From Dictyostelium discoideum (lineage: Eukaryota): a stretch of DNA of 64,000 bases. A program made the position numbers and the translations under genes. Positions within the stretch are counted from its first letter, which is position 1. Each line of letters starts with the position of its first letter. Where the stretch lies: assembly GCA_000004695.1 (NCBI GenBank), contig CM000150.2:4224001-4288000 (forward strand), in the 5' to 3' direction. The notes under the pieces are model-generated. The model saw only the letters and a list, made by a program, of their open reading frames with translations, was not told the DNA's origin and did not search any database. This document shows, in pieces, positions 53,085-60,369 of this stretch.

Positions 53085-53826
53085 TTACATCATTTTACAA
53101 ATTGAAGTTTTAGTTTGTTTTACTCTTGTATTTATTTTTTTAATTATTTTACTTGTATTAACTAATGGTTTTTTAGAGTCACTATCTTTTGATGGTTTAT
53201 GACTTTGTGGATCTTCTTTTCTTTTAACTATACGAACTGTTTCATTGAAAACTTCTTCAACATTTGTTCTATTTTTAGCGGAAACTTCCATGAATGACAT
53301 ACCTAAACATCGTGCTAAATCTTTACCTTCTTGAAATGTAACTTGTCTTTCATCATCTAAATCAATTTTATTACCAATCATCATTATTGGTACATCATCA
53401 CTATCCAATACACGAATGATTTGTTCTCTAAAGAATTGAATTTGGTCAAATGATGATCTTGATGTAACCGAATAAACCAATATGAAGCCTTCACATGATC
53501 TAATCCATTGGTCTCTCATAGCGGTTAATTCATCTTGACCTGCTGTATCTAATATATCTAACATATAAACTTGATCATCCACCAAACATTGTTTACGGTA
53601 TGAATCTTCAATTGTTGGATCATAATAATAAACAAAATGATTTGAAATAAATTGAATTGTTACTGCTGTTTTACCAACACCACCTTTTAATATTTTTAAA
53701 TTAAATGAAAAAAAAAAAAATTAATATTAATAAAACTTGGAAATTATTTTTATTTTTTTTTATTTTTTACATACCATCACCCATTATACATAATGATATA
53801 ACATTATTATTTTTATAGGAAGTCAT
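53085..53826 (-). CDS. Ras-subfamily small GTPase, copy 1 (rasU-Z-like), with an intron
   Basis: Exon 53775..53826 ([17 protein letters not shown], donor G|GTATGT) and exon 53085..53683 (acceptor AG at 53685-53684). The join gives GDG|[32 protein letters not shown].., with DTAGQDE, NK.D, SAK and the CaaX box CKMM. The protein is about 216 aa. Confidence 0.85.
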
Positions 53827-54114
53827 TTTTTTATTTATTTATTTATTTATTTTTATTTAGTTTAATAATAATTAATTGATTGAATAATTTTAAAATTCTA
53901 ATTTTATTATAATTGAATTTTCTTTTTTTCTTTTTTTAATTTTATGGAAATAATAATAAATATAATTATTTTTTTTTTATTTTTTATTATTTTTTTTTAA
54001 TTAAAATAATAATAATAATTATTATTATTCTTATTTTATTAAAAATTCTCTTTTACTCTATTTTATTCTCTTTTTCTATTTATAAATAATTTGAATTACT
54101 ATTTATTTGTTTGC

Positions 54115-54146
<32 letters not shown>

Positions 54147-54283
54147 TATAATATTTAAAAGGGATAGGTAATTAATTCTATTTAAATAATTTTACAAATT
54201 GTATTTAAATAGGAATAATTTTTAAAAAATTAATTTTTTTTATTTTATTGTAATTTTTTTTAAAAATTAATTCCGGTTTGTTA

Positions 54284-54333
<50 letters not shown>

Positions 54334-54658
54334 TTTTTATTATTGTAATTTTTGTCGTTACAAAAATATTGGGGGGTGGGTGTGATAATAAGATTAAAAT
54401 TAAAAAATCTTTTTTTATTTTTTATTTTTAATTTTTTGTTTTAAATTATATTTTTGTTTTAATTTTTATTATTTTTTTTTTTGTTGATGATTTTATTAAA
54501 TATCTTATCTATTTTTGTTATCTTTTTATTTGTACTTTTTATTGCAAATTTTAAAATAAAAAAAAACAAAACATAAAAAAATAAAATAAAAATAAAAAAA
54601 AAAAAAAAAATAAAAAAAAAATTAAAATGAATAAAAAATAAAGCTTTATATAATAGAA

Positions 54659-54701
<43 letters not shown>

Positions 54702-54835
54702 ATGATCACTTAATTCAGAGAATCAATTTTTTTTTTTTTTTTTCTATTTTTTTTTATTTTTTTAATTTTAAAATTTGGGCAAAATTATGTGAGACTCTCA
54801 ATTAGTTAATAAAAATTTATGATAAATTTTGATAG

Positions 54836-54872
<37 letters not shown>

Positions 54873-55031
54873 ATGTAAAATATTAATAAAAGAGAGGTGA
54901 GCAGTGCTATTATAAATAAACTTTTTTTTCCCCCACTAATTTTTTTTTTATTTTTTAGTCAACTTTTTTTCAGTTATCCAAAACAAACAATGGGGCGAAG
55001 TCATATAGTATTAAAAATAAAATAAAATAAA

Positions 55032-55070
<39 letters not shown>

Positions 55071-55830
55071 GTTCAATCAGTAATTAAATATAATCAAAAT
55101 CTCAAAACACACACTTCCAACTGACGCTGATCAAAAAAAAAAAAATAAAAATAAAAAAATAAAAAAAAAAAAAAAATATAATATTTTTATAGTTGTGGTG
55201 AAAATATTATTAGCCTCCAATCAAAAATCTTTATTAGGAATTCTAGATCACCACACTTTACTTTTTTTTTTTTAATTACTAAGCCGCAAGGTACCTTTTG
55301 TTTATATTTTTATAGTAATGAAATTTTTTAAAAAAAAATAAATATTTGGTTCTTTTTTTTTTTTTTTTTTTTTTTAATGATTTTTATTTTTATTTTTTTT
55401 TTTTTTTTTAATCACTTTTTATTTTTATTACTTTTTTTTTTTTAAAAATTAAATTAATATATTACCGAAAAGGTTTACTTAAAAAATTTACTAAAAATAC
55501 GGAGTTTTAAGTAAGTTCCTTTTTATTTCCAAAATAAAATGATATTATTATTATAATATTTTAATTTACCGATAAAAGATATTTTTTTTTTTTTGATTTT
55601 TATTTTTTTTTTTAATTAATAAATTGATTTTTTTTAGAAAGTTGGAAAAAAAAAATTGGAAAATATCTATAGATATTATTTTTATATACAAAAAATTAAA
55701 ATTCATTCAATTTGAATGAAAAATTATAATTTATAATTTTATTTTATTTATTTACAATATAATATTACATTTATAATTATTATTATTATTATAATCATTA
55801 TTATTATTATTTTTATTATTTTTATTATTT

Positions 55831-56520
55831 TTACATAACTTTACAAATTTCATTAATTTTTTTTTTTAATGGATTTTTGTTTTTTTTTAATATTTTTACA
55901 TGTTTTGATTTAATTCTATATAATTCTTCTTTTCTTTTAACACAACAAACTGCTTCATGAAAAACTTCATCAATATTTGATCTATTTTTAGCAGAGACTT
56001 CCATGAATGACATACCTAATCTTTGAGCCAATTCTTTACCTTCATGATAGGTAACTTGTCTTTCATTAACCAAATCTGATTTATTACCAATCATCATAAT
56101 TGGTACATCATCTCTATCCAATACACGTATTATTTGTTCTCTAAAATTTAAAACTTGATTAAATGATGATTTACATGTAATTGAATAAACCAATACAAAT
56201 CCTTCACATGATCTAATCCATTGATCTCTCATTGCGGTTAGTTCATCTTGACCAGCAGTATCGAGAATATCCAAAATATATGATTTATCACTAACACAAA
56301 TTTGTTTACGATATGAATCTTCAATTGTTGGATCATAATAATAAACAAAATGATTTGAAATAAATTGAGTTGTTACTGCTGTTTTACCAACACCACCATC
56401 GCCCATAATACAAAGTTGTACAATATTATTTTTATTATTATTATTACAATTATTTTCATTTATAAAATTATTATTATTAATAATAATATTTTTTTTAAAA
56501 TTTTTAATTTTAATTGACAT
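55831..56520 (-). CDS. Ras-subfamily small GTPase, copy 2 (intronless, with an Asn-rich N-terminal extension)
   Basis: A single 229-aa ORF starting at an ATG: [93 protein letters not shown]...NKSDL..SAK..EICKVM*. Confidence 0.85.
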
Positions 56521-58550: not shown

Positions 58551-58572
58551 TTATTTATTTATTTATTTATAT

Positions 58573-58607
<35 letters not shown>

Positions 58608-58674
58608 TATTTATTTATTTATTTATATTTATTTATTTAAATTTATTTATTTATTTATTTATATTATACAAAAT

Positions 58675-58725
<51 letters not shown>

Positions 58726-58740
58726 TTTTTTATATGTATT
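58551..58740. repeat. (ATTT)n/(TTTA)n microsatellite in the Ras intergenic spacer. A shorter (AAAT)n lies at 59221..59276.
   Basis: A run of 'atttatttatttattt...' with occasional ATATTT variants. Confidence 0.9.
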
Positions 58741-59223
58741 TTTACAATTTATAGTTATACAATTTATTTTTTTATACAATTGTTTTAAAATTAATGATTG
58801 GAAAAAAAACATTTCTTTTTTATAATGTTTTTTTTTTTTTTTTTTAATCAAACAATTAATTTTCAACGAAAATAAAATTATGAAAATTTTTATTTTATTT
58901 TTTTTATTTTTTTTTTTTATTTTTTTTTTTATTTTTTTTTTTATTTTTGTCACCACATAGTGTTGTCATTTAATTTTTTTGTGTTAATAAAAATAGAATT
59001 ATTAAGAAAAATTTGGTAGTTTCCCGAACTGACATTCAAAAAAATAATTATGAAAAAAAAAAAAAAAAAAATAAAATCTTTGTTTTGCAATGAGAATAAG
59101 TTAATAATTTTCAATCAGTGAAACTACCCTTAATGTAAATGTAACCCCCAAAAAAAAAAAAAAAAAAAAAAAGATAAAAATATAATAAAAAAAAAAGATA
59201 AAAATAAAATAAAATAAAAGATT

Positions 59224-59275
<52 letters not shown>

Positions 59276-59404
59276 ATATTTTTTTTATATTTTTTAATTT
59301 TATTCTTTTGATTATAATTTTATATATTCATTTGCATCATTTCACAAAAGATATTGATGAAACTTGCCCAGAAAAAAAAAAACAAATAAAAAAATTGACT
59401 ATTA

Positions 59405-59468
<64 letters not shown>

Positions 59469-59587
59469 ACTAAAAATAGAATTAAAACAATATTAAAAAA
59501 ATAAAAATTATCTTTACAAGAAATTCAATCAACATTTTAAATTGAAAGAATAATTTAAAATTTTATTTACAAAAGATTTCTATTATA

Positions 59588-59625
<38 letters not shown>

Positions 59626-59626
<1 letters not shown>

Positions 59627-60369
59627 TACATCATTTTACAAATTGATATTTTGGCACCATTTACTTTTTGATTTAATTTTTTAAAGATTGAAGATTTTTT
59701 AGAGTGATCACCTTTACCATCTTTTGAATTATCTTTTTTTAATAATGATTCTTCTCTTCTTTTTACACAACGAACTGTTTCATTGAAAACTTCTTCAACA
59801 TTAAGTCTGGTTTTAGCAGAGACTTCCATGAATGACATACCTAAACAACGTGCTAAATCTTTACCTTCTTGAAATGTAACTTGTCTTTCATCATCTAAAT
59901 CTGATTTATTACCAATCATCATAATTGGTACATCATCTCTATCTAATACACGGATAATTTGTTCTCTAAAGAATTGAACTTGGTCAAATGATGATCTTGA
60001 TGTTACTGAGTAAACCAATATGAAACCTTCACAAGATCTAATCCATTGGTCTCTCATAGCGGTTAATTCATCTTGACCTGCTGTATCTAATATATCTAAC
60101 ATATAAACTTGATCATCTATTAAACATTGTTTACGATATGAATCTTCAATTGTTGGATCATAATAATGTACAAAATGATTTGAAATAAATTGAATTGTTA
60201 CTGATGTTTTACCAACACCACCTTTTTTTAAAAAAAAAAAAATAAAATAAAAAATTAATATTATTAAAACTTGGAATTTATTATTTAAACATAGGTTATA
60301 TTTTTTTAACATACCATCACCCATTATACAAAGTTTAACTAAATTACCATTACTTTTATTTGTTGTCAT
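59626..60369 (-). CDS. Ras-subfamily small GTPase, copy 4 (with an intron at the same site as copy 1)
   Basis: Exon 60315..60369 ([18 protein letters not shown], donor G|GTATGT) and exon 59626..60221 (acceptor AG at 60223-60222). The join gives GDG|[51 protein letters not shown]...ISICKMM*. The intron shares 'ttccaagttttaataatattaatttttt' with the copy-1 intron. Confidence 0.85.

Follow-up and report, generated by a model that had tools for sequence, protein, structure and literature searches.

Loss and probable regain of a P-loop intron in the rasY–rasX–rasV–rasW array of Dictyostelium discoideum

The transfer of introns between paralogues by recombination or gene conversion was described in 2012 for three cases—in Chironomus, Aspergillus, and Mycosphaerella (PMC3443670)—and for Dictyostelium a genome-wide survey, in which the ras genes are unmentioned, found the source sequence for only two gained introns (PMC4683709). 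In D. discoideum 441 precise intron losses have been recorded, loss through recombination with complementary DNA (cDNA) being the general pattern (PMC4683709). Here we consider four Ras genes that lie head to tail, in the order rasY, rasX, rasV, and rasW, on the minus strand of a 64,000-nucleotide (nt) stretch of chromosome 1 of D. discoideum AX4 (contig CM000150.2, positions 4,224,001 to 4,288,000; this whole stretch is referred to as the window, and its own numbering is used below). These genes are already known and annotated as rasY, rasX, rasV, and rasW: their sequences and gene models are identical to those of the D. discoideum rasU–rasZ group, with no difference at the gene level, and the published cloning primers for RasU to RasZ match the genes of the window (PMC11187982), constructs of GST-RasU to GST-RasZ likewise existing in the literature (PMC11187982). 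The products of the group are minor, divergent Ras proteins, for which a part in the sexual cycle has been proposed, and the RasX, RasY, and RasZ mutants are without an obvious phenotype (PMC6304742). In the literature that could be searched we found no description of the intron history of this array across species.

Upon extending the comparison to twelve further assemblies, whose corresponding loci were obtained by a protein search followed by contig look-ups, we concluded that the informative event in the array concerns rasY, into which the intron was most probably brought back from rasW. We thus favor, with moderate confidence, a secondary re-acquisition of the rasY intron through a short gene-conversion tract over the joint retention of that intron by the two genes. 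Such an event would resemble the described intron transfers in that rasW offers a donor intron at the homologous site, that orthologues of rasY without the intron exist, that the new intron is donor-like, and that the family of the array shows concerted evolution; but would differ from those transfers in that the family's own ancestral intron would have returned to a copy that had lost it, instead of a new intron spreading.

The window has a guanine–cytosine (GC) content of 20%, and the minus strand was read from 52.5 to 61 kb with its open reading frames (ORFs) listed. The gene rasY (60369..59626; Q55CB7 / XP_646564) encodes 216 amino acids (aa) in an exon 1 (60369..60315) and an exon 2 (60221..59626), separated by an intron of 93 nt (60314..60222), while rasW (53826..53085; RASW_DICDI, Q55CC0), likewise of 216 aa, consists of an exon 1 (53826..53775), an intron of 91 nt (53774..53684), and an exon 2 (53683..53085). 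Both introns are bounded by GTATGT...AAAG and split, in phase 1 (G|GT), the same Gly codon of the P-loop sequence GDGGVGKT, at GDG|GVGKT. The two genes in between, rasX (58537..57896; 213 aa; RASX_DICDI, Q55CB8) and rasV (56520..55831; 229 aa; RASV_DICDI, Q55CB9), are uninterrupted ORFs without an intron. The products of the four genes coincided residue for residue with RASY, RASX, RASV, and RASW_DICDI in an exact-sequence look-up (on the 4,923,596-bp AX4 chromosome 1); and because the products of rasX and rasV match their entries exactly, these two genes are without intron in the public gene models as well, and the condition named at the outset as refuting the prediction does not hold. With one Ras gene as the query, tblastn recovered the other three in the window at E = 1e-89 to 1e-115, and the E-values among the four copies ranged from 1e-89 to 1e-145, which likeness is therefore not due to chance. 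The ORF reading, the tblastn searches, and the exact look-up accordingly bear out the original prediction—made from the letters of the window—of four minus-strand Ras genes belonging to the rasU–rasZ group of chromosome 1, the two outer copies sharing a homologous intron of about 90 nt at one P-loop Gly site and the two inner ones being contiguous there. In two details that account had to be amended: the start of rasW, which had been placed at 53825, lies at 53826, and of the spacing given as 2.1–2.7 kb only the upper value stood, the start-to-start distances along rasY–rasX–rasV–rasW measuring 1.8, 2.0, and 2.7 kb.

The P-loop intron is ancestral to the array, because the single gene of D. 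purpureum carries, at the identical site and in the identical phase, an intron of 76 nt. In rasW the intron was present in 9 of 9 assemblies, representing six lineages, whereas in rasX, rasV, rasZ, and rasU it was absent in all the assemblies carrying those genes, whose sequence at that point reads contiguously GGT GAT GGT GGT GTT, a precise deletion with the frame kept. Since these four genes are intronless in every species having them, the loss is old and predates the species compared. The case of rasY is different. Its intron was found in the five assemblies (5/5) of what we term the D. discoideum complex—AX4, two other D. discoideum, and two D. 'cf. discoideum'—with lengths of 93, 95, 107, 116, and 129 nt; but in D. 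citrinum (two assemblies), D. dimigraforme, and D. firmibasis the rasY gene has the same contiguous GGT GAT GGT GGT GTT and no intron. Of the earlier picture, in which the outer copies had kept the intron and the inner ones had lost it, the derived nature of the intronless state thus stands, while the gene that actually varies is an outer one, rasY, intronless in three sister species.

That the rasY intron is an intron at all might be questioned, in that the 93 nt of the AX4 copy preserve the frame and contain no stop codon, which would let an unspliced rasY be read through as an ORF of 247 aa. This reading would, however, put 31 residues into the P-loop; it takes no account of the GTATGT...AG boundaries; the rasY introns of the other strains would cause a frameshift (95, 107, and 116 nt) or an immediate stop (129 nt); and the intronless orthologues have a contiguous GDGGVGKT. 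Furthermore, 2% of shuffled introns were free of in-frame stops, so chance suffices, and the stop-free, in-frame condition of the AX4 intron looks accidental. We therefore regard an artefact of this kind as extremely improbable.

The introns of rasY and rasW are homologous, with AAT(A/T)TTCCAAGTTTTA(A/T)TAATATTAATTTTT as their common core and local-alignment z values of 4.4–12.5 relative to shuffles. The orthology of the rasY genes, on which the comparison of intron states depends, is documented in two ways: these genes form a group of their own in the gene tree, and the colinearity of the flanking spacers extends to the start codon. The AX4 spacers aligned with those of D. citrinum, D. dimigraforme, and D. 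firmibasis at 66–79% identity as far as the rasY ATG, so that the orthology is positional as well as sequence-based; and signatures at the N- and C-termini set the Y, X, Z, V, W, and U groups apart.

With the species tree obtained from the flanking INTS2-like gene and rooted with D. purpureum—(firmibasis,(dimigraforme,(citrinum,(complex))))—the retention of the intron in rasY would call for two or three independent losses, whereas its regain would call for one event, under every plausible rooting. The number of losses is at least two, and probably three, because D. citrinum groups with the D. discoideum complex: that grouping received 94% in the INTS2 tree, in which a clade uniting D. citrinum, D. 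dimigraforme, and D. firmibasis, whose rasY is intronless, received only 5%, and in 4,389 gap-free concatenated columns of the flanks the split of D. dimigraforme and D. firmibasis from D. citrinum and the complex was recovered at 100%.

The surroundings of the rasY intron in AX4 are consistent with a conversion tract of limited extent. Eleven nt upstream of the intron, at 60325–60327, rasY has the Ile codon ATA, which is of the rasW type: ATA is found in every rasW and in 5 of the 5 intron-bearing rasY genes, while the intronless rasY genes have ATT in 4 of 4. The codons CTT (60331–60333, 17 nt upstream) and TCA (60202–60204, 18 nt downstream), which are specific to rasY, were both kept and thus bound the tract, whose smallest extent would be 60222..60325, reaching the Ile codon ATA, and whose largest would be 60205..60330 (both on the minus strand); that is, the intron together with at most 16 nt on its 5' side and 17 nt on its 3' side.

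We also used the introns as a clock, corrected for the differing rates of the rasY and rasW introns. The coalescence of the two introns corresponded to 1.35–2.0 times the mean depth that separates the strains of the complex and to 0.50–0.63 of the split between the D. discoideum and D. firmibasis rasW introns, with bootstrap upper bounds of 0.72–0.92 across three alignments; expressed in units of flank distance, these values put the exchange on the stem of the complex, later than the divergence of D. citrinum. Two simpler uses of the introns were abandoned. A still ongoing homogenization of the rasY and rasW introns within the same strain, which global alignments had suggested, disappeared once five strains and local scores were considered (z 8.2 for the same versus 8.1 for different strains); and the raw similarity of the introns was dropped as a proof of recent transfer, the D. 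firmibasis rasW intron being equally similar, with the rate-corrected depth ratio used in its place.

To these distributions we applied a two-state likelihood model of gain and loss with a balanced root. With rates common to rasY, rasW, rasV, and rasX, the likelihood ratio in favor of an intronless rasY ancestor was 3.5–4.2. The alternative that this ratio counts against is that rasY retained the ancestral intron, which then disappeared through two or three independent losses from the genes of D. citrinum, D. dimigraforme, and D. firmibasis—either through conversion from the intronless rasX or rasZ or through recombination with cDNA—the intron of the D. discoideum rasY being kept and later homogenized with that of rasW. 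We consider this course of events possible, though not probable, and a number of observations that weigh against a regain speak at the same time for it. When rasY was taken alone with free rates, the likelihood ratio was about 1 (0.8–1.0), which value favors neither history: given long terminal branches and a species tree that is nearly star-like, one gain has little advantage in likelihood over three losses, and the intron distribution is, for that reason, not decisive by itself. Precise loss is, in addition, far commoner than gain in Dictyostelium (441 losses against 2 source-identified gains; PMC4683709), and in the array the intronless donors outnumber the single intron-bearing one. Exchange between rasY and rasX/rasZ is frequent (synonymous divergence, dS, of 0.18–0.28; a run of 76 matching sites between rasY and rasZ of D. 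firmibasis), and the conversion tracts of D. firmibasis come within about 24 nt of the intron site, so that a conversion-mediated loss from rasY would be mechanistically easy. The marker of co-conversion is one flanking site, the ATA/ATT codon, which fits equally well with a loss by conversion from rasX or rasZ, as that conversion would bring in the ATT seen in the intronless rasY genes. The intron clock, for its part, is soft evidence, since the introns are AT sequences of low complexity, whose alignments rest on some 50–100 columns, and since, by local score, the rasW introns of the complex match the rasW intron of D. firmibasis (z 7.7) as well as they match the rasY introns (z 8.1–8.2). Finally, the single early loss from which a regain would start is a matter of parsimony and not of demonstration, given the poorly supported deep part of the gene tree.

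Nevertheless, a history of parallel losses would require two or three of them in rasY against none in the nine rasW genes. Since the clock places the common origin of the two introns after the D. firmibasis split, that history would also need an additional homogenizing conversion on the stem of the complex, which event alone would explain everything under a regain. Moreover, in D. citrinum the intronless neighbors have ATA and rasY has ATT, which circumstance argues against a recent loss specific to D. citrinum by conversion from those neighbors; and if the losses had instead occurred through a rasY cDNA, the linkage of ATA and ATT to the state of the intron would be left unexplained.

A regain of the rasY intron from rasW, then, would fit the following sequence of events. 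One ancestral gene, adjoining an INTS2-like gene and bearing the phase-1 intron in the Gly codon of the P-loop, would have existed in the state that D. purpureum still has. After the split of D. purpureum, amplification would have ensued, and one early duplicate would have lost the intron precisely, most likely through recombination with a cDNA, because introns are generally lost by that route in Dictyostelium. From that intronless copy rasX, rasZ, rasV, rasU, and the ancestral rasY would have descended, so that only rasW would have kept the intron. The copies have traded sequence ever since, through non-allelic gene conversion and unequal crossing-over, both of which are directly demonstrated below; and once D. 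citrinum had branched off, a short tract from rasW would have copied the intron into the intronless rasY on the branch leading to the D. discoideum complex.

The exchange of sequence within the array that this sequence of events presupposes is demonstrably active. Between nt 140 and 345 of the coding region, the comparison of rasY with rasW within one species gave only 5 differing sites in D. citrinum, 5 in D. dimigraforme, and 6 in D. firmibasis, as against 12–23 between rasY and rasW across species and 11–23 between orthologues. Significantly long identical runs occurred in 43% of the same-species paralogue pairs and in 13% of the cross-species pairs, on which contrast we relied, the permutation p-values of the run test being inflated by uneven constraint along the gene. 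The dS between paralogues within a species (0.18–0.32 for Y, X, Z, and W) was no greater than that between orthologues of different species (0.28–0.53), and in D. firmibasis the genes rasY, rasZ, rasX, and rasW have in common a species-specific haplotype, GTT ACT ... TTC, starting about 24 nt past the intron site. Unequal crossing-over was seen directly in a D. 'cf. discoideum' strain (GCA_054859205.1) with a three-gene array, whose middle gene (L005:11689-12306, in our numbering of the extracted loci) is a rasX/rasV chimera of 205 aa, with 32 consecutive sites of the rasX type (nt 4–216) followed by 56 consecutive sites of the rasV type (nt 268–612). This gene is a clean unequal-crossover fusion, with one gene and one spacer deleted. 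The contrast within nt 140–345, the identical runs, and the chimera together confirm the conversion within the array that had been proposed. Arrays evolving in concert or by birth and death are similar in that paralogues within a species are nearer to each other than orthologues in a defined segment, in the fusion of rasX and rasV in one strain, and in a copy number and content that vary by species; but a full homogenization is not what we observe, since the pattern is patchy, with the N-termini, the C-terminal hypervariable regions, and the state of the intron specific for each copy.

As to the older loss, from rasX, rasV, rasZ, and rasU, the gene tree—constructed by neighbor joining on 189 gap-free codons, with bootstraps—recovered the groups of orthologues, while the deep order of the paralogues received 9–19% bootstrap support. 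With such values the number of original losses cannot be counted, and the proposed use of a tree to decide whether the intronless copies are sisters does not separate one loss from two. The simplest account has a single precise loss occurring in an early duplicate and the intronless copy being amplified afterwards. The precise removal of the intron with the frame intact in rasX, rasV, rasZ, and rasU resembles the intron loss through reverse-transcribed cDNA described for Dictyostelium (Ma et al. 2015, PMC4683709). Two differences from that model should, however, be considered. In the survey the lost introns were further from the 5' end (PMC4683709), whereas the lost ras intron is at the extreme 5' position, 52–55 nt from the ATG; neither a 3'-proximal bias nor the joint loss of adjacent introns is thus seen for this single intron, which test is a weak one for a gene of 650 nt. 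In a tandem family such as this one, moreover, a loss can spread by conversion between paralogues without a new cDNA.

The loss had been attributed to either conversion with a cDNA or retro-duplication within the array, of which proposal the derived nature of the intronless state and the activity of conversion were corroborated. Retro-duplication—by which rasX, rasV, and their intronless relatives would be processed retrocopies of a spliced ras mRNA inserted into the array—fared less well. The precise absence of the intron would be in line with that origin, as would the many reverse-transcriptase genes of D. discoideum (PMC4683709) and a run of 31 A residues after the stop codon of rasY. But the copies are head to tail in one orientation, with spacers colinear across four species, and a tandem position is the signature of unequal crossing-over, directly seen in the rasX/rasV chimera. 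Runs of A, for their part, are ubiquitous at 20% GC, and that of rasY is uninformative because rasY has the intron in AX4; likewise, target-site duplications and flank homology are undetectable in such DNA, and our comparison of the flanks of the paralogues for a duplication unit or the hallmarks of retrogenes gave only low-complexity matches. We therefore hold retro-duplication to be very unlikely.

Outside the close relatives of D. discoideum, homologues of the GDGG(V/C)GKT type were found in T. lacteum (L012:3001-3787) and P. violaceum (L013:3001-3730). That of T. lacteum has one intron, of phase 0, which follows the Lys codon of GGVGK and lies 14 nt away from the Dictyostelium site, and that of P. 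violaceum one intron, of phase 1, in the Ala codon of DTAGQ. With the introns of these two species elsewhere, the P-loop intron is traceable only to the common ancestor of D. purpureum and D. discoideum, and the differing positions suggest either intron sliding or independent gain and loss.

Regarding the sequence of the rasW intron, the motif TTCCA(A/G) followed by TATTAAT is kept in four close species (53684-53774 in the window; L001:14606-14719; L002:15100-15212; L003:12515-12648), with TTCCAAGTTTTATTAATATTAAT as the conserved core, and the rest of that intron is scrambled in D. citrinum and D. dimigraforme. The TATTAAT may be the branch site, because the introns of T. lacteum and P. violaceum have TACTAAT. 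A more far-reaching idea, which we put forward as a speculation and ourselves consider rather doubtful, is that the intron behaves as a cassette, mobile within the array by short-tract conversion; rasY of the D. discoideum complex would then represent a reversal of intron loss with an identified donor and a datable age, in an organism whose homologous recombination lends itself to manipulation, and the GC-containing core of rasW (TTCCA[AG]...TATTAAT, in the four species) might be kept by selection as, for example, a regulatory or splicing element that rasY acquired too.

The proteins encoded by the four genes are, by their predicted features, functional members of the Ras subfamily of GTPases. 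They scored 178–187.5 bits with the Pfam model Ras (PF00071), whose cut-off is 21.6, with RasY at 187 bits, and all four contain the G1 P-loop GxxxxGK[ST], the effector loop, DTAGQ, the G4 motif NKxD with (S/I)DL, and the G5 motif SAK as VSAK. Asp takes the place of Ala11 and Thr that of Ser17, and Gly12, Gly13, and Gln61 are unchanged. The C-terminal CaaX box, preceded by a basic hypervariable region, is CKMM in RasY, RasX, and RasW and CKVM in RasV, in agreement—as is the P-loop GDGGVGKT seen in all four—with what had been noted at the outset. The identity of more than 80% stated there applies to RasY, RasX, and RasW (80–85%) but not to RasV, which is 71–73% identical to each of the others. 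Similarly, the Asn-rich N-terminal extension of RasV exists, but its length is about 24 aa (56449..56520, minus strand) and not 30, because the Pfam Ras domain begins at residue 36 in RasV as against 11–12 in RasY, RasX, and RasW; and as it is present in every rasV orthologue, with a conserved MSIKI... start and a variable length, the extension is old and no recent acquisition. The ratio of nonsynonymous to synonymous divergence (dN/dS) between orthologues was 0.04–0.27 for the four genes, which shows that all of them are under purifying selection. The sole other small-GTPase gene that tblastn found in the window, at about 45266–46119 on the minus strand and some 7 kb downstream of rasW, has introns and is a distant relative, about 28% identical to RasX; it is the counterpart of a 214-aa gene in two other loci (L010, L011) with matches to Ras, Arf, and MMR_HSR1, and is outside the rasU–rasZ group.

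The array has the same flanks in all the close species, namely the INTS2-like gene upstream and, on the downstream side, a gene of about 600 aa and then sdhB, with a content that varies in between. D. firmibasis has the five genes Y, Z, X, V, and W (L001:7175-15318); both D. citrinum assemblies have Y, a Z-like gene, V, and W (L002:8702-15811), with no rasX in the array; D. dimigraforme has Y, X, V, and W; and the two D. 'cf. discoideum' assemblies have Y, the X/V chimera, and W in one instance and Y, X, V, and W in the other. The two further D. discoideum assemblies have Y, X, V, and W plus a separate rasU–rasZ pair (L007/L008:8689-10645), situated about 16.6 kb upstream of rasY in inverted orientation, and D. 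purpureum has its single gene beside the INTS2-like gene. By extrapolation, rasU and rasZ of AX4 fall outside the window, beyond its end; an exact-protein look-up of the AX4 rasZ returned no record, and rasZ was thus taken from the other D. discoideum assemblies. The differing content of the arrays implies either a relocation of rasZ or a differential loss of a duplicated rasZ. In D. citrinum a remnant of the Y–X spacer is found downstream of the Z-like gene.

Several further observations were made along the locus. In the rasV gene of D. citrinum (L002:12433-13100 and L009:10364-11050), a poly(A) run close to the 3' end contains a 1-nt frameshift, which turns the CaaX terminus ...ICKYM into ...ICKSIKL and results in odd spliced or fused annotation models; this frameshift is probably real because it is present in both assemblies, and may mark a loss of prenylation or a pseudogenization. 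In D. dimigraforme a RING-finger gene of 244 aa (L003:5864-6598, minus strand) is called between rasY and rasX on the opposite strand, with nothing comparable in the 1.1-kb rasY–rasX spacer of AX4. The V–W (53827–55830) and X–V (56521–57895) spacers, read on the minus strand, align over nearly their full length, at 66–73% identity, with those of D. citrinum, D. dimigraforme, and D. firmibasis, and hold several islands that are not AT-rich, such as GATCAGCGTCAGTTGGAAGTGTGTG and ATGACTTCGCCCCATTGTTTG; in addition, an isolated GC-rich motif, TTCGCGCGCACCGATATCGAG, lies directly 3' of rasX, at about 57820–57860. Scans for tRNA genes and Rfam families between 50 and 64 kb found no RNA genes in the spacers.

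How introns are gained is poorly documented, and the value of this array lies in the comparison among species, the genes themselves being ordinary. If true, the re-acquisition of the rasY intron would provide a case in which the donor is identified, the tract reaches at most 16 nt on the 5' side and 17 nt on the 3' side of the intron, the branch is dated, and several strains plus sister species are available, in an organism that allows the event to be tested by gene targeting. We therefore consider the array a candidate new example of a known, though rarely documented, process, of modest interest for specialists in intron evolution. For the biology of Ras the impact would be small; for the history of the family, the rasY gene would indicate that the intron state of paralogues can reverse, which possibility counsels caution in the use of the presence or absence of introns as a phylogenetic character.

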